64,000 bases of DNA from an uncultured Alphaproteobacteria bacterium (GTDB lineage Bacteria; Pseudomonadota; Alphaproteobacteria; Rhizobiales; Xanthobacteraceae), in the NCBI GenBank assembly GCA_963770515.1, contig CAVYPW010000003.1, forward strand, positions 348,025 to 412,024, written 5' to 3'. The notes under the pieces are model-generated. The model saw only the letters and a program-made list of their open reading frames with translations, was not told the DNA's origin and did no database searches. Shown here piece by piece: positions 20,464 to 55,473 of this stretch. Position 1 is the first letter of the stretch, and each line of letters opens with the position of its first letter. The translations under genes were made by a program, and so were the position numbers.

Positions 20464-21747
20464 ATGACAGCTGCTTTGCCTGATCCGAAACCCGCCCATC
20501 GCGTGGTGATCGTCGGCGCCGGATTCGGCGGCCTTGAATGCGCGCTGCGGCTAAAGGGCGCGCCGGTTCAGATCACGCTGGTCGATCGCCGCAACCACCA
20601 TCTGTTTCAGCCGCTATTGTACCAGGTCGCGACCGCCTCGCTCGCTACTTCCGAGATCGCCTGGCCAATTCGCCATCTGATGAACGATCGACCGGAAGTC
20701 ACGACCTTGTTCGCCACCGTCAGCGGCGTCGACGCCGACAATAAACGCGTGCTGCTCGACGACGGCGATACGCTGCCCTACGACACGCTGGTGCTCGCGA
20801 CCGGCGCGCGCCATGCCTATTTCGGCCACGACGAATGGGAGCCGTTTGCGCCGGGTCTGAAAACGCTCGAAGACGCCACCACGTTGCGGCGGCGAATCCT
20901 GGTCGCCTTCGAGCGAGCCGAACGCGAACGCGATCCGGAAAAGCGCGCCGCGCTTCTGACCTTTGTCATCATCGGCGCCGGCCCGACCGGCGTCGAACTC
21001 GCCGGCACCATCGCCGAACTCGCGCAAGACACGTTGCCTCCCGATTTTCGCAACATCGATACCCATCAGGCGCGCGTGGTGCTGATCGAAGCCGGGCCAC
21101 GCGTGCTGGCGGGCTTTGCCGACGATCTCTCGGCCTATGCGCAGGCCTCGCTGGAAAGCATCGGCGTCGAAGTCGTATTGGGACAAGCCGTCACCGAATG
21201 CTCCGCCGACGGCGTCGTTTATGGCGGCAAGCATTTGCAGGCGCGGACATTGATCTGGGCCGCCGGCGTACGCGCCTCGCCCGCTGCCGAGTGGCTGCAT
21301 GCGGCGGCCGATCGCGCCGGCCGGTTACAGGTCAAGCCTGATCTGTCCGTTCCTGATCACCCCGATATTTTCGCGGTCGGCGACACCGTCACGATCGCCG
21401 ACAGGCAAGGAAATCCGGTGCCGGGCATCGCGCCCGCCGCCAAGCAACAGGGCCGCCATGTCGCCGCATCGATTCTGGCGCGGCTCTCGGGCAAGACGCC
21501 CGCGCCGTTTCGTTACAGCCATGCCGGCAGTCTGGCCCAGATCGGCAAGCGCAAGGCGGTGATCGATTTCGGCGCGATCAAGCTGCGCGGCACGATTGCC
21601 TGGTGGATCTGGGGCATCGCCCACATTTACTTCCTGATCGGCTTGCGCAACCGGCTTAGCGTTGCCATTAGCTGGCTCTGGATTCATGCCCGCGACCAGC
21701 GCGCCGCACGGCTGATAACGCAAGGTTCGAGCAAGGTAGCGCGTTGA
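20464..21747 (+). CDS. ndh: NAD(P)/FAD-dependent oxidoreductase, type II NADH dehydrogenase family
   Basis: GAGFGG, DRRNHHLFQPLLYQVAT, GAGPTGVELAG, WAAGV, AVGD, APAAKQQG. Confidence 0.88.
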   Translation: MTAALPDPKPAHRVVIVGAGFGGLECALRLKGAPVQITLVDRRNHHLFQPLLYQVATASLATSEIAWPIRHLMNDRPEVTTLFATVSGVDADNKRVLLDDGDTLPYDTLVLATGARHAYFGHDEWEPFAPGLKTLEDATTLRRRILVAFERAERERDPEKRAALLTFVIIGAGPTGVELAGTIAELAQDTLPPDFRNIDTHQARVVLIEAGPRVLAGFADDLSAYAQASLESIGVEVVLGQAVTECSADGVVYGGKHLQARTLIWAAGVRASPAAEWLHAAADRAGRLQVKPDLSVPDHPDIFAVGDTVTIADRQGNPVPGIAPAAKQQGRHVAASILARLSGKTPAPFRYSHAGSLAQIGKRKAVIDFGAIKLRGTIAWWIWGIAHIYFLIGLRNRLSVAISWLWIHARDQRAARLITQGSSKVAR

Positions 21748-39187: not shown

Positions 39188-39799
39188 ATGCAGAACGTCG
39201 TAGCCATCAATGCCGCAGCTTGCCAAGGCATCATTGCCGCTCAGGCGACGTCCGACGAAGCGCTGCTTGAGAGCATTGCCGAGGGCGGCCGCCACGCGAT
39301 GCATATTCTCTATTCGCGCCACCATGTGCGGGTTTACCGGTTTATCCTGCGGATGGTGCGCGACGCCACGACGGCCGAGGATTTGACCAGTCAGGTTTTC
39401 CTCGACGTGTGGCGTACGGCAAGCCAATTCCAGGGGCGTTCTCAGGTCTCCACCTGGCTTCTGTCGATTGCCCGCTTCAAGGCCCTGACGGCTTTGCGGC
39501 AGCGGCGGCACGAGGACATCGATCAGGAGGAGATCCTGGAGATCGCCGACGGCGCGGAGACGCCGGAAGCCTGTCTCGACCGCAGTTCAACGAGCGCGAT
39601 CCTGCGCGCCTGCGTCGCCCAACTGTCGCCGGCGCATCGAGAAATCATCAACCTCGTCTATTACCATGAGAAGTCGGTGGAGGAGGCCGGTCTTATCATC
39701 GGCATTCCCCAGAGCACGGTGAAGACCCGGATGTTCTATGCGCGCAAACAGCTCGCCGACCTGCTCAAGGTCGCCGGAATCGAGGGCCTGGCCGCCTGA
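39188..39799 (+). CDS. ECF sigma-70 family factor (possibly EcfQ/ECF33-like)
   Basis: SDEALL, AEDLTSQVFLDVW, STWLLSIAR (region 2), LSPAHREII, GIPQSTVKTRMFYAR (region 4.2). Confidence 0.9.
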   Translation: MQNVVAINAAACQGIIAAQATSDEALLESIAEGGRHAMHILYSRHHVRVYRFILRMVRDATTAEDLTSQVFLDVWRTASQFQGRSQVSTWLLSIARFKALTALRQRRHEDIDQEEILEIADGAETPEACLDRSSTSAILRACVAQLSPAHREIINLVYYHEKSVEEAGLIIGIPQSTVKTRMFYARKQLADLLKVAGIEGLAA

Positions 39800-39868: not shown

Positions 39869-41279
39869 ATGTTCGAAAGCTGGGATGCCGTGGGCTTGGC
39901 CCGGGCGCAGTTCGCATTCACGATGTCGTTTCACATCGTGTTCCCGGCTTTCTCGATCGGATTGGCCAGCTACCTCGCTGTTCTCGAAGCGCTGTGGTTG
40001 TGGACCGGGCGCGAAGTCTTCCTCAACCTGTTCAATTACTGGCTGAAGATTTTCGCCGTTGCCTTCGGCATGGGCGTGGTGTCGGGCATCGTGATGTCCT
40101 ACCAGTTCGGCACCAACTGGTCGGTCTTCTCCGACAAGACCGGCCCGGTGATCGGCCCGCTGATGGCCTATGAGGTGCTGACCGCCTTCTTCCTCGAAGC
40201 CGGATTCCTTGGCGTCATGCTGTTCGGCCTCGAACGGGTGGGCCATCGCCTGCACTTTCTCGCGACCCTGATGGTGGCGATCGGGACTTTGATCTCGGCC
40301 TTCTGGATCCTCTCCGCCAATTCCTGGATGCAAACGCCGGCCGGCTACGCCGTCAACGCCGATGGACAGTTCGTCCCCGCCGACTGGCTAAAGCTGATTT
40401 TCAACCCGTCGTTTCCCTATCGCCTCGTGCATATGGTGCTCGCAGCCTATCTCACCACCGCGCTGGTCGTCAGCGCCGTCGGCGCCTTTCATCTCTGGCG
40501 CGATTCCCATCAGGCGGGCGCCCGCGTGATGTTTTCGATGGCGATGTGGATGGCGACGCTGGTCGGACCGATCCAGATTCTCGCCGGCGATCAGCATGGC
40601 CTCAATACGCTGGAGCATCAGCCGGCCAAGGTGATGGCGATGGAAGGCCATTACCAAAGCCACAAGGACGGCGCGCCGCTGATCCTGTTCGGACTACCCG
40701 ATCAACAAGCCGGCACGGTGCGCTATCCGATCGAAATCCCCAAGCTGAGCTCGCTGATCCTCAAACATGCGCTCGATGCGCCGCTCAACGGCCTCGACAC
40801 CGTTCCGCGGCAGGATTGGCCGCCGGTTCCGATCACGTTCTGGTCGTTCCGGATCATGGTCGGGCTGGGATTTCTGATCTTCGGCCTCGGCCTGCTGAGC
40901 CTTTGGGAACGCTGGCGCGGAAAGCTCTATGAGTTCGCGCCTGCTGCATGGATTTGCAGTCGCCATGGGACCGGCGGGCTTCGTGGCCGTGCTCGCCGGC
41001 TGGATCACCACCGAGACCGGGCGCCAGCCGTTCACGGTCTATGGGCTGCTGCGAACGGCGGATGCAGCCTCGCCATTGGCTGCGCCCGCGGTTTCCTCCT
41101 CGCTGATCGCCTTCGTGGTAGTCTATTTCGCCGTGTTCGCCGCCGGCGTGATCTATATCCTGCGCCTGATGGGCCATCCGCCGCTTCACGGCGAACAAGG
41201 CCCGCCAGGCGATATCCCGGCGCGCGCCGCAGGCATCACGCCCGCCGTTGCCGCGGTGGCGAAGGGAGAGGCCCCATGA
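39869..41279 (+). pseudogene. cydA: Cytochrome bd ubiquinol oxidase subunit I (short Q-loop, CioA-type), +1 frameshift near 40934 (probably a sequence error)
   Basis: FHIVF, GIVMSYQF, EAGFLG, HQPAKVMAMEG; KLYE joins SRLLHGFAV...GWITTETGRQPF after removing one T; stops at 41279 overlapping the cydB ATG. Confidence 0.9.
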
Positions 41280-42289
41280 GCGTGTCTTTCGATGTGGCAA
41301 CGATCTGGGCGTTCATCATCGCGTTTGCGGTCTTCGTCTATGTAGTGATGGACGGCTTTGACCTCGGGCTTGGCATTCTGTTTCCGCTTTTTCCTGAAAA
41401 ATCAGATCGCGACGTCATCATGAACAGCGTCGCGCCGGTATGGGACGGCAACGAGACCTGGCTCGTGCTGGGCGGCGGCGGCCTGATGGCCGCCTTTCCG
41501 CTCGCTTATGCGGTTTTGATGCCGGCCCTCTATACGCCCGTGATTGCGATGTTGATCGGTCTCGTCTTTCGCGGAGTCGCTTTCGAATTTCGCTGGCGCA
41601 CGACACGGGTCGAGCGAAACCGCTGGGATCTCGCCTTCGCCGGCGGATCGTCGTTGGCGGCGCTGGCGCAAGGGGTCGCGCTCGGCGCCATCCTGCAAGG
41701 CATTCACGTCGAGGGACGACACTATGCCGGCGGGTGGTGGGACTGGCTGACGCCGTTCACCGTTCTGACCGGCATTTCGCTGGTCGCCGGCTACGCGCTG
41801 CTCGGCGCCACCTGGCTGGTGATGAAGACCGAGGGCGGCCTCCGCGACAAGGCCTATCGCCTGAGCTGGTTATTGCTGGTCGCCATGCTGGGCGCGATCG
41901 GGGCGGTCAGCATCGCCACGCCATTTCTTCATGTGCAATATGCGCAGCGCTGGTTCACCTGGCCGAACCTGATCCTGACCGCGCCGGTGCCGATCGCGGT
42001 CGCCGCCGTCACCATCATGCTGCTGCGCAGCCTCGCCGCAAGGCAGGATTATCGGCCGTTTTTCCTGTCGCTTGCTTTATTTGCGCTGTCCTATGCCGGC
42101 CTCGGCATCAGCATGTATCCGTATATCGTGCCGCAAAGCATCACCATCTGGCAGGCGGCGTCGCCGGAGCGCAGCCAGATCTTCATGCTGTTTGGCGTCG
42201 CGGTGCTGGTGCCGCTGATCCTTGGCTACACCGCCTGGGCCTATTGGGTCTTCCGCGGCAAGGTCAAACCCGAAAGCGGCTATCATTGA
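41276..42289 (+). CDS. cydB: Cytochrome bd ubiquinol oxidase subunit II
   Basis: YVVMDGFDLGLG, PVWDGNETWLV, FRGVAFEFR; ATGA overlap with cydA. Confidence 0.93.
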   Translation: MSVSFDVATIWAFIIAFAVFVYVVMDGFDLGLGILFPLFPEKSDRDVIMNSVAPVWDGNETWLVLGGGGLMAAFPLAYAVLMPALYTPVIAMLIGLVFRGVAFEFRWRTTRVERNRWDLAFAGGSSLAALAQGVALGAILQGIHVEGRHYAGGWWDWLTPFTVLTGISLVAGYALLGATWLVMKTEGGLRDKAYRLSWLLLVAMLGAIGAVSIATPFLHVQYAQRWFTWPNLILTAPVPIAVAAVTIMLLRSLAARQDYRPFFLSLALFALSYAGLGISMYPYIVPQSITIWQAASPERSQIFMLFGVAVLVPLILGYTAWAYWVFRGKVKPESGYH

Positions 42290-48432: not shown

Positions 48433-49107
48433 TCAGGCTCGACGGAGTACCAGCGTGAGATTATTGGCCGGCATGTCGACGATCTCGATCAGCGAAAGGC
48501 CGGCCTGGCCTGCGAGTTTTTCCACCGCCTCAATATCGCGTACGCCCCATTCGGAATTGCCTTGCCGCAGGCTCGCATCAAAAGCGGCATTGCTTTCCGC
48601 CGTGTGCTGGCCGCCGCGCGCGAAGGGACCGTAAAGGAAAAGCATTCCACCTCCGCGCAAGGCACGCCCTGCGCCGGCAACCAGTCCCTCGGCGACGTGC
48701 CATGGTGCGATGTGAATGACATTGGCGCAGAACACCGCGAGCAACTGGCCGGGGCCACCCTCGGCCCTCATCGCATCACCCCAGGCCGGATCGGCCAGAT
48801 CAATCCGCTGTGGCGGACGGATATTCGCAAGCTGTGAATGCCGCCGCCACGCCTCGATGCTGGTGAGGTGATTTTCGTTGAGATCGCTCGGCCACCAGGT
48901 GATGTCGGGAAATTGGCGGGCGAATTCGATAACGTGCTGACCGGTGCCGCTGCCGGCCTCAACGGCGTCGCCGGATTTGCCGGTCAAGTACCGCTCCAGA
49001 ACGCCGCGGATCGCCTGATGGTTACGGTGAAAGGCTGGGGCGTCGAGGCGCCCGTCGGGCTCGAGGCGGCCACCATCTTTGCCAAATTCAACGACATACT
49101 CAGCCAC
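48433..49107 (-). CDS. DUF938 family class I SAM-dependent methyltransferase-like protein
   Basis: RNHQAI, EAGSGTGQH, WWPSD, NVIHIAPW, YGPF, SNAAFDASL, MPANN. GTG start after GGGAGG. Confidence 0.88.
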   Translation of the reverse strand: MAEYVVEFGKDGGRLEPDGRLDAPAFHRNHQAIRGVLERYLTGKSGDAVEAGSGTGQHVIEFARQFPDITWWPSDLNENHLTSIEAWRRHSQLANIRPPQRIDLADPAWGDAMRAEGGPGQLLAVFCANVIHIAPWHVAEGLVAGAGRALRGGGMLFLYGPFARGGQHTAESNAAFDASLRQGNSEWGVRDIEAVEKLAGQAGLSLIEIVDMPANNLTLVLRRA

Positions 49108-49203
49108 GATAGCCTCCCGGAACGGCGCCACCCGCGTTGTCAGGCGATAGCCTTTATGCTTTGAACGATTATATTCGGGCTAATCGCCCACAGGAACTCT
49201 ATC

Positions 49204-49560
49204 TTGATCGACCGTCGCTCATCCGGACTCCTTATGATGGCGCTCATGACCGCCATCACCTGGCCATGTTGTGCGGCACACGCCCAATCGAAGGCCAGCG
49301 AAGGCCAAAAACTCGCTTTCGACCGGGCGAAAGGCAACTGTTTGAGCTGCCACGACATCAAAGGTGGTGAGTTGCCGGGCACTATCGGGCCGGCGCTTAA
49401 AGACATCAAACGCAAATATCCTGACCGTAACGATCTTGTTGCGATCCTCACCGACGAGACACGCCGAAATCCACTAACGGCGATGCCGCCGTTCGGCCGG
49501 AATCGTATTTTGACCGAACAGGAAATCGACGCGATCGTCGATTTCCTGCAAACGCTATGA
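49204..49560 (+). CDS. soxX: Sulfur-oxidation c-type cytochrome SoxX
   Basis: Signal peptide, KGNCLSCH heme motif, GTIGPAL, MPPFG. Confidence 0.9.
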   Translation: MIDRRSSGLLMMALMTAITWPCCAAHAQSKASEGQKLAFDRAKGNCLSCHDIKGGELPGTIGPALKDIKRKYPDRNDLVAILTDETRRNPLTAMPPFGRNRILTEQEIDAIVDFLQTL

Positions 49561-49597
49561 GACGGAGCAGGCGGCAAGACCTCATGGGAGATACGCG

Positions 49598-50092
49598 ATG
49601 ACAACCTCGAAGGAACGCTTCCCGGTGACGCGACGCCTCGTGCTGCGCGGCGCCGGATCGGTCGCGCTCGCCGGCCTCGGCGTCGTCTCGTTCCCCGCCG
49701 CGCCCACCCATGCCGCCGCCAATGACAAATACCCGGAAGAAGCCTTCAGGCAAAAGGACGGCAAGGAGGCGATCAAGCTGCTCTACGGACGCACAGCCGA
49801 GCCCTCCGACAAGATCAAGCTCGATGCGCCCGAGATTGCAGAGAATGGTGCGGTGGTTCCGATCTCGGTCTCGACCAGCCTTGCCGACGTCACCACGATC
49901 GCGTTCGTGGTGCCGGAAAATCCGAATGTGCTCGCCGCCTATTACAAGATTCCGCAGGGCACGATGCCCAATGTCGCCAACCGTCTGAAAATGGCCAAGA
50001 CCAGCAACGTCATCGTAATCGTGGAATCCGGCGGCAAACTTTTCAGCGCGACCAAGGAAGTCAAAGTCACCGTCGGCGGCTGCGGAGGTTGA
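49598..50092 (+). CDS. soxY: Sulfur carrier SoxY
   Basis: Twin-arginine signal, PEIAENGAVVP, C-terminal VTVGGCGG swinging arm. Confidence 0.96.
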   Translation: MTTSKERFPVTRRLVLRGAGSVALAGLGVVSFPAAPTHAAANDKYPEEAFRQKDGKEAIKLLYGRTAEPSDKIKLDAPEIAENGAVVPISVSTSLADVTTIAFVVPENPNVLAAYYKIPQGTMPNVANRLKMAKTSNVIVIVESGGKLFSATKEVKVTVGGCGG

Positions 50093-50094
50093 AC

Positions 50095-50406
50095 ATGGCA
50101 TCGAGTATCCGCGTGCGTGCGATCGCCAATGGCGAGACGACCGAGGTGCAGACGCTGATCCAGCATCCGATGGATTCCGGCTTCATCAAGGATGACAAGG
50201 GTGCATTCATCCCGGCGCATTTCATCAAGGAACTGACGTTCGAACATAACGGACAGCCGGTGTTCATCGCCGATTGGGGAACCGCGGTCTCGAAGGACCC
50301 CTATGTCAAGTTCGCCTTCAAAGGCGGCGTCAAGGGCGACGATCTGAAGGTGAGCTGGATCGACAACAAGGGCGGGACCGACACTGCCACATTCAAGATA
50401 CAGTAG
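50095..50406 (+). CDS. soxZ: Sulfur carrier partner SoxZ
   Basis: HPMDSG, IPAHFI, VSKDPY..F; no signal peptide. Confidence 0.93.
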   Translation: MASSIRVRAIANGETTEVQTLIQHPMDSGFIKDDKGAFIPAHFIKELTFEHNGQPVFIADWGTAVSKDPYVKFAFKGGVKGDDLKVSWIDNKGGTDTATFKIQ

Positions 50407-50415
50407 GGGCTTGTC

Positions 50416-51294
50416 TTGGCGGCGCGTGTGGACCGAGCCGGGAGACGGTTAAGCGTGAGATTTCTTTTGGTTTCCCTCGCTGCCCTGCTACTCGCGATCG
50501 CGGAAGCTGTCGCCGCCGACGGCGTGGACCCGGCCGCTGAGGCGGGAGCCTTCCGCGGTTACTTCATCCACAAATTCCCGAACGTGAAGCTCGACGATTT
50601 CGCCAACGGCCCGTACGCGCTGAACAAAGACATGCGCCGGCAATGGGAGGAGAAAGAACAGTTTCCGCCTTACGAATTTTCGCTTGAGGCCGGCAAGGAA
50701 CTGTTCGCCAAGCCTTTCACGAACGGCAAACATTATGCGGATTGTTTTCTCGATCAAGGCATCGGCGTCCGGCAGAACTATCCGCGATTTGACGACAAGA
50801 CCGGCCAAATCATCACGCTCGAACTGGCGCTGAACCAGTGCCGCGAGGCCAATGGCGAAAAAGCCCTCTCCTACACCGGCGACGAGATGGCCGCATTGAC
50901 CGCCTATATGGCCTTCACCTCTCGTGGCAAACCATTCGACATCAAGATTCCCGACGACCCCCGCGCGCATGAGGCTTACGAAAACGGCAAGCGCTATTTC
51001 TACACGCGGCGGGGGCAATTGAATTTTTCCTGCGCGACCTGCCATGTGCAAAATCCCGGCGAGCGGCTGCGCGCCGAGGTACTCGCGCCGGCGCTCGGGA
51101 TTCTCAACGCGATGCCGATCTACCGCTCGGAATGGGGCGGCATGGGCACCACCAGCCGACGCTTCATCACCTGCAACAGCCAGGTGCGCGGCGTGCCGCT
51201 CGAACCGCAAGCCGAAGAATATCGCGACCTCGAATATTTTCTGTCCTATGTCAGCAACGGTTTGCCGATTTCCGGACCGGGGTCGCGGCCATGA
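50416..51294 (+). CDS. soxA: Monoheme SoxA (sulfur-oxidation c-type cytochrome)
   Basis: Only one CxxCH (FSCATCH), RRGQLNFSC, active-site RRF..C and LEYFL motifs. The start may be 50454. Confidence 0.92.
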   Translation: MAARVDRAGRRLSVRFLLVSLAALLLAIAEAVAADGVDPAAEAGAFRGYFIHKFPNVKLDDFANGPYALNKDMRRQWEEKEQFPPYEFSLEAGKELFAKPFTNGKHYADCFLDQGIGVRQNYPRFDDKTGQIITLELALNQCREANGEKALSYTGDEMAALTAYMAFTSRGKPFDIKIPDDPRAHEAYENGKRYFYTRRGQLNFSCATCHVQNPGERLRAEVLAPALGILNAMPIYRSEWGGMGTTSRRFITCNSQVRGVPLEPQAEEYRDLEYFLSYVSNGLPISGPGSRP

Positions 51295-51617
51295 GGGTCC
51301 TATCGAAAGCTCCGCTACAGATGATTTGTTGGCTCGCGTTTGTCTCGTGGATCAGTACCGCAGCATTTGCCGCAAGCTCCGAGGCTGACTTCAGATCGGC
51401 CTACGCGCAGGCAGACGCCACCGAACAGGAAGCCGGCCGCCTGCGCAACCAGTGGCTCGCGACTGAAACAGCTCTCACCGAAGCGAGAGGCGCCGCCGAC
51501 AAGAATGACTTCGACCGGGCAACCGGATTTGCCAAGGAAGCCGAAGCGCTGGCCAAGGCCTCGATTTTCCAGGCAACAAGCGAAAAAGAGGCCTGGAAGA
51601 ACCTCGAAATTCACTGA
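51291..51617 (+). CDS. soxK: SoxK (SoxAX-binding protein)-like, 108 aa
   Basis: Signal peptide then Ala-rich helices with W..T...L..A...A motif; position between soxA and soxB; ATGA overlap with soxA. Confidence 0.7.
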   Translation: MRVLSKAPLQMICWLAFVSWISTAAFAASSEADFRSAYAQADATEQEAGRLRNQWLATETALTEARGAADKNDFDRATGFAKEAEALAKASIFQATSEKEAWKNLEIH

Positions 51618-51650
51618 CACACCCTGAAAGAGAATCGCACAGCGCCGACC

Positions 51651-53393
51651 ATGACCCTCAACCGCCGGAATATTCTCAAACTAGCGGGCGTCACCGCGCT
51701 CTCCGGCAGTCTGCCGCGACGAGGGCACGGTGCAGAGGGTGGCGTTTACGATCTCGAACGCTTCGGTAACGCCCGCATCCTGCACATCACCGATACGCAT
51801 GCACAGCTTTTGCCCGGATATTTTCGAGAACCCAGCGCCAATCTCGGCCTGGGCGCGATGGCCGGGCAGCCGCCGCATCTCGTCGGCCGCGCCTTTCTCG
51901 ACCACTTCGGCATCAAGCCGGAGAGCGCCGATGCTTACGCTTTCACCTCGCTTGATTTCGAAAAATCCGCCGCGCGCTTCGGCAAACTCGGCGGCTTTGC
52001 GCATCTGAAAACCCTGATCGACCGATTGCGCAATGAGGCAGGACTGCAGCGCTCTCTGCTGCTTGACGGCGGCGACGCCTGGCAAGGCACGGGGCTGGCC
52101 AACACCTTGCGCGGCGCCGACATGATCGAAGCCGCCAACCTGCTCGGCGTCGAAGCGATGACCGGGCACTGGGAATTCACCTATGGCGAGGAGACGCTGC
52201 GCAGCAACCTTGAACGCTTCAAGGGAGAGTTTCTTGCGCAAAATGTTTTCCTGACCGACGAGGCTGCGTTTAGCGGTGCCAAAGCTTTCGACCCGGCCTC
52301 GGGGCGCGTGTTCAAACCGGCCACCATGAAGGAGGTTGGCGGCTACCGTATCGCGGTGATCGGGCAGGCGTTTCCTTACGTTCCAATCGCGCATCCGAAG
52401 CGGCTGACGCCGGACTGGACCTTCGGCATTCGCGAACAGGAATTGCAAACACTGATCGACAGTCTTCGTTCGGCCGAGAAAGCCGACGCGGTGCTGCTGC
52501 TGTCGCATAACGGCATGGACGTTGACCTCAAATTGGCGAGCCGCGTGCGTGGCCTCGATGTTATTCTTGGCGGTCACACCCACGATGCGATTCCGCAAGC
52601 CATCGCGGTTGCCAATGCCGGCGGCACCACGCTCGTCACCAACGCCGGGTCGAACGGCAAATTCCTTGGCGTGCTCGATCTCGATCTCGACAAAGGCCGC
52701 GTGCGGGACGTGCGATACCGTCTGTTTCCGGTGTTTTCGGAGCTATTGAAAGCGGATGCGGCAATGGCAGCGCTGATCGACAAAGTTCGCGAGCCGTATG
52801 CGGCCTCATGGAGCGGCAAGATCGCCACCACCGACCGCTTGCTCTATCGCCGCGGCAATTTCACGGGCACCGTGGATCAGTTGATCTGCGCCGCGCTACG
52901 CCGAGAGTTCGATGCCGAAATCGCGCTGTCGCCGGGCTTTCGCTGGGGCGCAAGCTTTCTGCCGAACCAGCCTTTGACGATGGAAGACGTCCTGAGTGAG
53001 ACCGCCATCACCTACCCGGAAACCTATGTCTCGAGGCTGACCGGCACCGAGATCAAGAACACGCTCGAAGACATCTGTGACAATCTCTTCAATCCCGATC
53101 CCTACTACCAGCAGGGCGGCGACATGGTCCGGATCGCCGGGCTCAGCTATAGCTGTACGCCTTCGGAAAAAATCGGGCGACGAATTTCCGACCTGAAACT
53201 CGACAGGGGCCGTGCGATCGAGCCTGGCAAGCGCTACACCGTCGCCGGCTGGGCCGCCGTCAACGCCCAGCAAGGAATACCGGTGTGGGACCTTCTTGCC
53301 AAACATCTCGGAAGTGGCAAGCCGCTCAGCCCTTCGTCCAACAATGTTGCGTTGCGGGGCGTTGCCGGCAATCCCGGCATCCTGGAGCCGTGA
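51651..53393 (+). CDS. soxB: Thiosulfohydrolase SoxB
   Basis: Tat signal NRRNILK; HITDTHAQL, DGGDAWQG, GHWEF, LSHNG and GGHTHD di-Mn ligands; LYRRGNF. Confidence 0.95.
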   Translation: MTLNRRNILKLAGVTALSGSLPRRGHGAEGGVYDLERFGNARILHITDTHAQLLPGYFREPSANLGLGAMAGQPPHLVGRAFLDHFGIKPESADAYAFTSLDFEKSAARFGKLGGFAHLKTLIDRLRNEAGLQRSLLLDGGDAWQGTGLANTLRGADMIEAANLLGVEAMTGHWEFTYGEETLRSNLERFKGEFLAQNVFLTDEAAFSGAKAFDPASGRVFKPATMKEVGGYRIAVIGQAFPYVPIAHPKRLTPDWTFGIREQELQTLIDSLRSAEKADAVLLLSHNGMDVDLKLASRVRGLDVILGGHTHDAIPQAIAVANAGGTTLVTNAGSNGKFLGVLDLDLDKGRVRDVRYRLFPVFSELLKADAAMAALIDKVREPYAASWSGKIATTDRLLYRRGNFTGTVDQLICAALRREFDAEIALSPGFRWGASFLPNQPLTMEDVLSETAITYPETYVSRLTGTEIKNTLEDICDNLFNPDPYYQQGGDMVRIAGLSYSCTPSEKIGRRISDLKLDRGRAIEPGKRYTVAGWAAVNAQQGIPVWDLLAKHLGSGKPLSPSSNNVALRGVAGNPGILEP

Positions 53394-53459
53394 TAAAGCG
53401 GCTTCTCGCTGCGCCATTTTCTTCGGCATGATACGATCAGGGAATCGGTTCACGGATTT

Positions 53460-54506
53460 ATGGCCATGATCTTTCGTCAGCTGTTCGACAGCGTCTCCGG
53501 CACCTACAGCTATCTCCTGGCGAGCCGTGCGGGCGGCGAAGCGATGATCCTCGATCCCGTGCTCGAGAGGGTCGATCGCTATTGCCAGCTACTGCGCGAG
53601 CTCGACCTCAAGCTCGTCAAGGCCGTGGATACGCACTTGCACGCCGACCATGTGACGGGGCTCGGCGAGTTGCGCGACCGCACCCACTGCGTCACCATCA
53701 TGGGCGAGCAGACCAAGGCCGACGTCGTGGCGATGCGGGTCGCCGACGGCGACAAGGTGACGATCGAGGGCATTACGCTCGATGTGATGTACACGCCCGG
53801 CCACACCGACGATTCCTACAGTTATCTGATGGGAGACCGGGTTTTCACCGGCGATACGCTTCTGATCCGCGGCACCGGCCGCACCGATTTCCAGAACGGC
53901 AGCGCGCGGGCGCAATACGACTCGATCTTCAACCGGCTATTGAAGCTGCCGGAAGAAACCATGGTGTTTCCCGCCCATGATTATAAAGGCGATACCGTTT
54001 CCACCATTGGCGAGGAGAAACGCTACAATCCGCGGCTACAGGTGCGCTCGATCGATGAATACGTCGAGCTCATGAACAATCTGAAGCTGCCCAATCCCAA
54101 AATGATGGATGTCGCGGTGCCGGCCAACATGCATGTCGGGCTGCATCAGGATGAGCTGGCTAAACAGGGGCAGGCATTCACCGCGCGCGAGGCGATCGAA
54201 GGTCTCGGCCGTCCCGATATTCTTCTGGTCGACTTGCGCGAGGTAGCCGAGCGCGCCAAGCACGGCACCCTGCCCGGCGCGCTGCACGCGCCGTATCCTT
54301 CGATCGGCGACAGTCTCGAGCCCGGAGGGATGCTGCGCGAAGTCGCGACCGCGACCGGGCGGCGCATCGTGTTCTTCTGCGCCTATGGTGAGCGTTCGGC
54401 GATGGCAGTCGCCGCCGCGAAAGAAGCGGGGCTGACCAATTCGGCGCACATCGCCGGCGGCATCGACGCCTGGAAAAAGGCCGGCGGGCCGGTGTTGACG
54501 GGCTGA
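53460..54506 (+). CDS. Persulfide dioxygenase (ETHE1-like MBL) fused to a rhodanese domain
   Basis: IFRQLFD..SGTYSYL, THLHADH, PGHT, GRTDFQ, HDYKG, then rhodanese FFCAYGERS. Confidence 0.9.
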   Translation: MAMIFRQLFDSVSGTYSYLLASRAGGEAMILDPVLERVDRYCQLLRELDLKLVKAVDTHLHADHVTGLGELRDRTHCVTIMGEQTKADVVAMRVADGDKVTIEGITLDVMYTPGHTDDSYSYLMGDRVFTGDTLLIRGTGRTDFQNGSARAQYDSIFNRLLKLPEETMVFPAHDYKGDTVSTIGEEKRYNPRLQVRSIDEYVELMNNLKLPNPKMMDVAVPANMHVGLHQDELAKQGQAFTAREAIEGLGRPDILLVDLREVAERAKHGTLPGALHAPYPSIGDSLEPGGMLREVATATGRRIVFFCAYGERSAMAVAAAKEAGLTNSAHIAGGIDAWKKAGGPVLTG

Positions 54507-54513
54507 TGGCCTT

Positions 54514-54607
54514 CCTCGTCCTGAGGAGCGCGACCTCGCGCGTCTCGGAGGACGATATCCTGCGGCCCTTCGAGACGCGGTCTTCACGACCGCTCCTCAG
54601 GGTGAGG
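54514..54607. repeat. REP element (CCTCxTxxTGAGGAG family)
   Basis: cctcgtcctgaggag...ctcctcagggtgagg, between convergent stops. Confidence 0.8.
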
Positions 54608-54615
54608 CACCGGTC

Positions 54616-55473
54616 CTATTGTTCGACCCGCTGCAACTCGCTGACCAGCCGATCCAGCGCATCGGCGATCATCACGCCGCCGCACACCGTCAGCCGATCC
54701 GGAATCACGATGCGCCGCGACGGCGGATAAAGTTCCTCCAGCGCGGGATGCAGCAGGAACGCATGGCCGTCGTCTTCGGCCCGGTCGCCTGCATCCGAGA
54801 CGACGATGAAATCAGGTTTCAACTTCACGATCGTCTCCAGCGAGGCATAGCCGCCGAAGGCAATGCCAAGGTCGCCGGCCGCGTTGAAAAGTCCGGTCTC
54901 GGTCAGCAGAGAACTCAGCAGGCTATCGCTGCCGGACACCCAGCCGCGCGGCGACAGCGGCAATACCTTGTAGCGATGCTGCGACACTACTTTTCGCGCG
55001 CGCGCGATCGCGTCGTCGAGCCGCGCGATCTCGGCGCTCGCACGGTCGGGATGACCGACGAGATCGCCCATCTCGCGAATCTGCGCCTTGACCTCGTCGA
55101 GGTTGCGCGGCACGGCGAATTCAGCGATATGAAGTCCCTTTTCCTTCAACAGTTCCCGCGTCGACCGTTTGTCGAACAGGCCCGCCACGACAATATCGGG
55201 CCGGATCACCAAGATGTCCTCGGCGCTCCCCGATAGCTTCGGATAGCGTCGCGCGTCACCAGCAGCAAAGGATTGCCAAACGTCGCGCGAGTATCGGCTG
55301 AGCCCAAGGATCTGCTCGGGATCGGCCAGCGGAACAAGCAACTGATCGGTGCAGAGATTCATTGATACGATTCGTGGACCGGCCGCCGTTCCTGGCGCAG
55401 GCCGAAGGCCGACGAACGTCGCAAGCGCCGCGACGATGGCCGACCGGGATAGTGATCCAAGACGACGGCTCAT
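54616..55473 (-). CDS. btuF: Cobalamin/iron ABC substrate-binding protein (BtuF-like)
   Basis: Signal peptide, RIVSMNLCTDQLL, type III helical-backbone fold; in operon with permease and ATPase next to a B12 riboswitch locus. Confidence 0.8.
   Translation of the reverse strand: MSRRLGSLSRSAIVAALATFVGLRPAPGTAAGPRIVSMNLCTDQLLVPLADPEQILGLSRYSRDVWQSFAAGDARRYPKLSGSAEDILVIRPDIVVAGLFDKRSTRELLKEKGLHIAEFAVPRNLDEVKAQIREMGDLVGHPDRASAEIARLDDAIARARKVVSQHRYKVLPLSPRGWVSGSDSLLSSLLTETGLFNAAGDLGIAFGGYASLETIVKLKPDFIVVSDAGDRAEDDGHAFLLHPALEELYPPSRRIVIPDRLTVCGGVMIADALDRLVSELQRVEQ

Follow-up and report, generated by a model that had tools for sequence, protein, structure and literature searches.

A genus-conserved Sox gene cluster of Bradyrhizobium with monoheme SoxA and a SoxK-like protein, adjoining a persulfide dioxygenase-rhodanese fusion gene

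When soxCD is deleted in Cupriavidus pinatubonensis JMP134, persulfide dioxygenase (PDO) and glutathione (GSH) oxidize the sulfane sulfur coming from the truncated Sox system to sulfite, which re-enters Sox as thiosulfate; in general, sulfide:quinone oxidoreductase (SQR) and PDO produce sulfite and thiosulfate, whose oxidation is completed by Sox, and PDO without Dsr is found in 21 of 62 species whose Sox system is incomplete (PMC9959259). A PDO-rhodanese fusion (PRF) is known from Burkholderia (Paraburkholderia) phytofirmans (BpPRF); its rhodanese domain passes thiosulfate sulfur on to GSH, for use by the PDO domain, and the enzyme is tied to sulfur assimilation and not to a sox cluster (PMC9163753). 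For Bradyrhizobium diazoefficiens, an essential role in thiosulfate oxidation is ascribed to soxY1 of a Paracoccus-like locus I only (PMC5748708). Here, we describe a sox locus on a 64,000-nucleotide stretch of DNA (C3:348025-412024; in the following, the window) from a 6.28 Mb, 99.97% complete genome of Bradyrhizobium. Seven genes on the plus strand at positions 49204-54506 of the window encode SoxX, SoxY, SoxZ, SoxA, a SoxK-like protein, SoxB and a PRF. On balance, we favor the interpretation that these genes represent a Sox module conserved in the genus (SoxX, monoheme SoxA and SoxK-like protein, SoxYZ, SoxB), which adjoins a core cytoplasmic PRF with a function of its own. The genes and the conserved upstream boundary of the locus are as follows.

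48433-49131, minus strand: DUF938 methyltransferase-like gene, which forms the conserved boundary on the upstream side (PF06080, 216 bits); adjoins PRF directly in relatives without sox
49204-49560, plus strand: soxX, monoheme c-type cytochrome (TIGR04485, 87.5 bits, cut-off 61; Pfam Cytochrom_C; single haem motif CLSCH at residue 46)
49598-50092, plus strand: soxY, sulfur carrier (TIGR04488, 154.7 bits, cut-off 125; twin-arginine translocation (Tat)-type signal; C-terminal GGCGG)
50089-50406, plus strand: soxZ, partner of SoxY (TIGR04490, 126.9 bits, cut-off 76)
50416-51294, plus strand: soxA, monoheme form (TIGR04484, 228.8 bits; alignment to 1h31 and 2c1d)
51291-51617, plus strand: soxK-like gene (SAXB), small periplasmic protein of 108 aa (NF052674, E 4.5e-9, 36.7 bits, cut-off 95)
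51651-53393, plus strand: soxB, thiosulfohydrolase with Tat signal (TIGR04486, 812 bits, cut-off 550)
53460-54506, plus strand: PRF, type I (ETHE1-like) PDO with C-terminal rhodanese domain (PDB matches; Pfam Lactamase_B and Rhodanese)

From soxX to PRF, the genes follow each other at distances of 37, -4, 9, -4, 33 and 66 bp. Six of the seven lie above curated model cut-offs, namely SoxX, SoxY, SoxZ, SoxA, SoxB and the metallo-β-lactamase (MBL)-fold protein with its rhodanese domain. By the equivalog models, the set of SoxY with its GGCGG swinging arm, SoxZ, SoxX and SoxB qualifies as Sox (TIGR04488, TIGR04490, TIGR04485 and TIGR04486, all above their cut-offs). Export signals are present on SoxY, SoxB and SoxA. 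The true start of soxX may be one of the ATG codons approximately 30 nt downstream of the called start. At the other end of the cluster, a 74-aa open reading frame (ORF) overlapping the PRF stop (54506-54730) was treated as non-coding, being Ser/Arg-rich and without a family match. Between the convergent ends of PRF and a periplasmic binding-protein gene, positions 54521-54602 of the window contain an inverted repeat of 11 nt, CCTGAGGAGCG ... CGCTCCTCAGG, whose loop measures approximately 60 nt.

The architecture of monoheme SoxA plus SoxK, which an earlier note on this DNA had described, is supported here. In the alignment to the diheme SoxA 1h31, YADCF takes the place of its first haem site, CADCH, and the window SoxA keeps CATCH of haem 2 (residue 206, the only CxxCH) as well as the cysteine ligand Cys 253 in FITCNS. 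The longest ORF in the gap between soxA and soxB (51340-51627) was rejected as soxK, since it is an off-frame artefact with a Pro/Arg-rich translation. The true soxK-like gene at 51291-51617 is read in another frame, overlaps the soxA stop by ATGA, and encodes 108 aa with a signal peptide. Its product matches positions 28-108 of the 111 positions of the profile NF052674 (SAXB, SoxAX-binding protein, i.e., SoxK), with a score under the curated cut-off. More than 3000 homologs are present in public data, every one labelled hypothetical. The NCBIfam cut-off for SAXB (95 bits) passes over this family (36.7 bits here; proteins P0010-P0129).

In a complex model, the SoxK-like protein spans SoxA and SoxX with an ipSAE of 0.92, compared to 0.13 for the best of three controls. 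Contacts agree between the runs to at least 98%, and the partner has a predicted local distance difference test (pLDDT) of at least 94. Of 80 solved complexes, 58 reach the mark applied here, as do 2 of 110 mismatched pairs. Thus, the model supports a putative binding of the SoxK-like protein to SoxAX. To our knowledge, no structure of a SoxAX-SoxK complex has been solved; as SoxAX structures do exist, the pass may partly reflect likeness to known structures.

The last gene of the cluster is a PDO-rhodanese fusion, as the earlier note had stated. Its best solved relatives are the Myxococcus PDO 4ysb (9e-80), BpPRF 5ve3 (3.5e-63) and human ETHE1 4chl (8e-61), and the best matches are PDOs rather than glyoxalase II. 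The PDO domain contains the motifs HLHADH (residues 59-64), TPGHTDD (112-118), FTGDTLL (129-135), RGTGRTDF (137-144) and PAHDY (171-175). All iron ligands and the ETHE1-type substrate loop RGxGRTDF are kept, which assigns the protein to the type I PDOs. The rhodanese domain (PF00581, residues 241-341) has the catalytic loop CAYGERS at residues 307-313, aligned with the loop of BpPRF. The called protein begins with MAMIFRQLF; its relatives begin at the second ATG (53466, MIFRQLF). No signal peptide was found on PRF. It is, therefore, placed in the cytoplasm, whereas Sox is periplasmic. PRF is the sole ETHE1-type PDO of the genome; the next-best MBL protein is a glyoxalase II, and a candidate for a second PDO at C1:904314 was rejected as GloB.

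The relation of PRF to the sox genes was assessed in 80 loci that contain a close relative of PRF, taken from Bradyrhizobium, Nitrobacter and related metagenome-assembled genomes. soxXYZAKB followed by PRF was found in 43 of the 80 loci, and in 17 loci soxCD is located directly upstream of the same soxXYZAKB and PRF. In ten loci, sox is missing and the DUF938 gene adjoins PRF. Two loci have sox remnants, one has another upstream gene, and seven were too short to judge. The median identity over the 80 loci is 88.7% for PRF, 73% for SoxB and 63% for SoxK. Partial sox clusters occur in L026 (soxY, soxZ and soxB beside PRF, without soxX, soxA and soxK) and in L046 (a SoxZ fragment only), which point to a loss of sox by deletion with PRF retained. 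A strain of B. diazoefficiens (L070) has the same soxXYZAKB-PRF arrangement as the window.

Within the genus, 60 genomes were sampled (including the unpublished genome G076, on which no conclusion rests). The SoxB type of the window was found in 57 genomes, approximately ten of which also have a second, Paracoccus-like SoxB beside a canonical soxC, and PRF is a single-copy gene in 58. Outside the family, full-length PRF orthologs (55-69% identity) were detected in 19 of 300 alphaproteobacterial genomes. SoxB is present in none of the 19, and the PRF neighborhoods there differ among themselves and are unrelated. BpPRF-like proteins form a separate group in this alphaproteobacterial survey (38-44% identity). 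This makes PRF a core enzyme of the cytoplasm that is distributed independently of Sox. Between DUF938 and PRF, the sox genes are variably inserted or deleted, and the addition of soxCD at the same site varies as well. From this, we conclude that sox and PRF stand side by side mainly by inheritance within a single lineage, although the arrangement may also be of functional use, as both act on thiosulfate and sulfane sulfur. Two points of the earlier reading are not supported or are weakened by this comparison: the cluster is not atypical for its host, given the distribution of its SoxB type and the 17 loci with soxCD upstream, and the role of PRF as an accessory of Sox is contradicted by the ten loci without sox, in which PRF keeps the same site, and by the 19 genomes without SoxB.

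In many relatives from Bradyrhizobium and Nitrobacter, soxB and PRF are separated by one to three additional genes for secreted proteins (L027:6178-7943, L028:6226-7939, L048:6348-7912, L042:7143-7712). Judged by eye from the translations, the proteins are two DsrE/DsrF-like paralogs of approximately 150 aa and one GlcG/DUF336-like protein; all are missing from this window.

The remaining sulfur genes were sought in the entire genome. SoxB is a single-copy gene in this genome-wide search, and a Paracoccus-like locus I (soxTRSVWXYZABCD) is missing from the genome. A type I SQR is encoded at C8:153914-155535 (L111:7915-9535; 3sz0, 4e-142). It is followed by an 87-aa membrane ORF resembling a DUF2892/YgaP-type protein, with no adjoining PDO. 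An ORF in the window (20464-21747; Pyr_redox_2) was considered as SQR and rejected by NCBIfam. A second sulfur locus (C4:484939-488450; L109:8940-12449) contains a Tat-exported FccB-like flavoprotein (5n1t, 4e-127). Downstream of the latter, a SoxY paralog ending in AACTEEVI ('AACIE arm' type), a SoxZ and a 281-aa ORF of no assigned identity were observed. The sulfite dehydrogenase SorA (699 bits, cut-off 600) is encoded at C3:48110-49411 (L102:511-1812), on the contig of the window and approximately 300 kb upstream of it, and the glutathione synthetase GshB is encoded in the genome as well. SQR, the FccB-like protein, SorA and glutathione synthetase together make up the published SQR-PDO-Sox network.

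The earlier note had claimed that soxCD, dsr and shdr are missing from the window. This is correct, as all genome-wide matches to soxCD, dsrA and sHdr-type genes are located outside C3:348025-412024; the first 32 kb of the window (1-32 kb) were covered by these genome-wide searches rather than by a gene-by-gene family scan. Extending the search to the genome, as the note had suggested, gave a divided result. For DsrA, there was no TIGR02064 match genome-wide, and no paired sHdrB-type CCG-domain genes were found genome-wide, the CCG-domain proteins being GlcF and one unrelated Fe-S protein only. A SoxC/SoxD-family pair, however, is present on contig C5 (52156-53950; L006:9977-11924). The SoxC-family gene at C5:52156-53394 reaches 509.8 bits with TIGR04555 (cut-off 420), carries the Tat-type motif RRALL, and is closer to Paracoccus SoxC (2xts_A, 2e-83) than to SorA (2ca3, 1.6e-34). 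It is directly followed by a gene for a SoxD-like monoheme cytochrome (2xts_B, 8e-31). By family criteria, i.e., a molybdoprotein with Tat signal, a SoxD cytochrome c partner and greater proximity to SoxC than to SorA, the pair fits SoxCD. Hence, the Sox system of this genome does not count as truncated in the sense that a SoxC/SoxD homolog occurs nowhere in the genome. The pair is flanked by housekeeping genes, with radA and purF on one side and xth, alr and dnaB on the other. The note had named a soxCD elsewhere that complements the cluster as a finding that would overturn its proposal. Such a pair is present; as a divergent paralog, it is a candidate for complementing the cluster.

According to the interpretation favored here, the SoxK-like protein would hold SoxX and monoheme SoxA together. 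Judging from family membership, SoxXAK would couple thiosulfate to the SoxY cysteine in the periplasm, and SoxB would release sulfate and leave SoxY-Cys-S-S-. In the cytoplasm, PRF is expected to convert glutathione persulfide to sulfite, while its rhodanese domain would shuttle sulfane sulfur among thiosulfate, GSH and sulfite, as suggested by the biochemistry of BpPRF and ETHE1. The main source of sulfane sulfur for PRF is probably the type I SQR on C8. Sulfite and thiosulfate formed in this way would be completed by SorA and Sox, so that the Sox cluster and PRF would be nodes of one SQR-PDO-Sox network rather than a dedicated bypass of SoxCD. For the sulfane sulfur bound to SoxY, the most direct candidate is the SoxCD-like pair on C5, and leakage to the thiol pool followed by oxidation through PRF would be the fallback. 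Both the pair and PRF are candidates for handling SoxY-derived sulfane sulfur here.

Several observations weigh against this interpretation. Nearly all sampled Bradyrhizobium retain soxB next to PRF, also where one to three periplasmic genes intervene, and descent may not be the only reason: the two could be under selection for joint expression. Co-transcription is possible, as the 66 bp between soxB and PRF contain only a weak terminator-like hairpin; a scan of the locus gave no promoter-like sites and no more terminator-like sites than in shuffled sequences, which has no bearing on co-transcription. Furthermore, the genomes G036, G103 and G120 carry the cluster and PRF and have no SoxC-family match at E ≤ 1e-60, and for these, a route through PDO suggests itself as the candidate. 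The C5 SoxC, finally, is a divergent paralog, which scores 283.9 bits to 2xts_A compared to 452.8 for a cluster-adjacent SoxC of Bradyrhizobium and has approximately 45% identity to the latter. It may be a sulfite dehydrogenase instead of a sulfane dehydrogenase.

The strongest of the alternatives is the following, though we consider it improbable. A truncated Sox system would be served by PRF as its dedicated terminal enzyme: sulfane sulfur released from SoxY would enter the cytoplasm as glutathione persulfide and be oxidized to sulfite, giving complete oxidation of thiosulfate without SoxCD. The earlier note had proposed this route. It agrees with the absence of soxCD from the cluster and of dsrA and sHdr from the genome, with the only ETHE1-type PDO being encoded 66 bp past soxB, with the presence of GshB in the genome, with the soxB-PRF adjacency throughout the genus, with the relatives lacking a SoxC match at the above threshold, and with the chemistry shown in the soxCD deletion strain of Cupriavidus (PMC9959259). 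However, a SoxCD-family pair is encoded on C5, and soxCD occurs together with the same cluster and PRF in 17 of the 80 loci. The compartments of PRF and Sox differ, and no transporter gene is linked to the sox cluster, the single gene of the YeeE/YedE family being located on a different contig. In addition, PRF is retained where sox was lost and is present in the 19 alphaproteobacterial genomes without Sox. The earlier note is thus supported in part: its cluster type and its PDO fusion are correct, whereas the route without SoxCD is for this strain a mere proposal, is dispensable given the SoxCD-family pair elsewhere, and corresponds to chemistry which is already published.

Somewhat less probable still is a complete Paracoccus-style Sox cycle, in which the C5 pair would take the part of SoxCD, as in organisms with split loci, and PRF would be unconnected with thiosulfate respiration. 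The family score, the Tat-type motif and the proximity of both C5 proteins to the Paracoccus SoxCD structure given above argue for it. In the genus, however, TIGR04555 scores fall into classes of 610-670, 550-578, about 500-514 (including the C5 SoxC) and about 480 bits, often with several per genome, the classes being judged by these scores and by PDB scores rather than by a tree. In other Bradyrhizobium genomes, members of the class of approximately 500-514 bits occur beside canonical SoxC (610-670 bits), so that they probably serve another function. The housekeeping surroundings of the pair and the identity of only approximately 45% to the cluster-linked SoxC of relatives likewise argue against this model. 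In addition, G121, the closest relative searched, has a sole SoxC-family match in another score class (576 bits). Up to seven SoxC copies were counted in one genome of the family (G014).

Least probable is that the cluster has only a minor part in thiosulfate respiration and scavenges or detoxifies low amounts of thiosulfate or polysulfide, as the dispensable soxY2 of B. diazoefficiens suggests: the published restriction of the essential role there to soxY1 of locus I (PMC5748708) and the lack of soxR, soxS, soxT, soxV and soxW nearby agree with it, but the genes are all intact and conserved in 57 of the 60 genomes of the genus, the genome has no other SoxB, and soxY2 is only a putative ortholog of the window soxY. 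An attempt to equate the two by elimination failed, because the SoxB type of the window is the only one in the B. diazoefficiens genome G120, which also lacks a SoxC match.

Leaving the strain itself, a natural route from thiosulfate to sulfate independent of SoxCD and Dsr is conceivable, if doubtful, in lineages with soxXYZAKB-PRF and no SoxC match at E ≤ 1e-60 (e.g., G036, G103, G120), possibly including this strain if the C5 pair is a sulfite dehydrogenase only. It would require a transfer of sulfane sulfur from periplasmic SoxY to cytoplasmic PRF, and the periplasmic DsrE-like proteins encoded between soxB and PRF in many relatives might aid this transfer.

The surroundings of the cluster were inspected as well. 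Upstream, an extracytoplasmic function (ECF) sigma factor, a cytochrome bd oxidase ORF, an L,D-transpeptidase, a solute-binding protein, a glyoxalase-fold protein, two major facilitator superfamily transporters and the DUF938 gene are encoded; an ATP-binding cassette importer of the iron/B12 type and a TonB-dependent receptor follow downstream. No further sulfur-related gene was found near the sox cluster, and soxR, soxS, soxT, soxV and soxW are all missing there. The oxidase, which the earlier note had correctly placed about 7 kb away, ends 6.9 kb upstream of soxX.

39869-42289, plus strand: cytochrome bd oxidase with CydA and CydB domains in one 806-aa ORF (PF01654 and PF02322); listed as context only

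The ECF sigma factor gene (39188-39799) is located directly upstream of the oxidase ORF. In relatives, the oxidase is encoded by two genes, or the junction contains an in-frame stop codon (G064: 82% identity, one TGA; G432: one TAG). For the 806-aa CydA-CydB ORF, the two explanations are a genuine fusion through stop loss and an error in sequencing.

Taken as a whole, the locus is ordinary and conserved in the genus. All of its components and the cooperation of Sox with PDO have already been described, and it is a further instance rather than a new mechanism. Bradyrhizobium is a dominant soil genus and almost all sampled species pair the Sox module with PRF; therefore, the disposal of sulfane sulfur from SoxY bears on the turnover of thiosulfate and sulfide in soil. 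Since PRF is core and soxCD is variable, the natural variants (soxCD-linked, soxCD-orphan, and without a soxC-family match at E ≤ 1e-60) form a ready panel on when PDO substitutes for SoxCD.

Among the known systems, the SoxAX-SoxK (SAXB) systems of green sulfur bacteria and some Beta- and Gammaproteobacteria (soxXYZAKB) share with this locus the monoheme SoxA and SoxX, the small SoxK-like gene between soxA and soxB, the GGCGG end of SoxY and the absence of soxCD within the cluster. In contrast to them, the host here is an aerobic alphaproteobacterium without Dsr, the SoxK-like protein scores under the SAXB cut-off, soxJ and soxW are absent, and 17 of 80 relatives of the cluster have soxCD in front. 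Within the genus, 'locus II' of B. diazoefficiens was reportedly described as green-sulfur-like by Masuda et al. in 2010. The soxY2 locus of B. diazoefficiens USDA110 (Masuda et al. 2010, as cited in PMC5748708), presumably the counterpart of the locus described here, belongs to the same genus, but the present genome is without locus I and the window SoxB is its only one. BpPRF (PDB 5ve3-5ve5) has the same domain order, metal ligands and rhodanese Cys loop as the window PRF, aligned over residues 3-342; the window PDO domain, however, is nearer to the Myxococcus PDO than to BpPRF. In Cupriavidus, the soxCD deletion created a route with the same chemistry as that proposed for this locus. There, it is an engineered deletion in a strain with complete Sox and unlinked PDO genes, whereas here the arrangement is natural and adjacent, yet accompanied by a SoxCD-family pair elsewhere in the genome.

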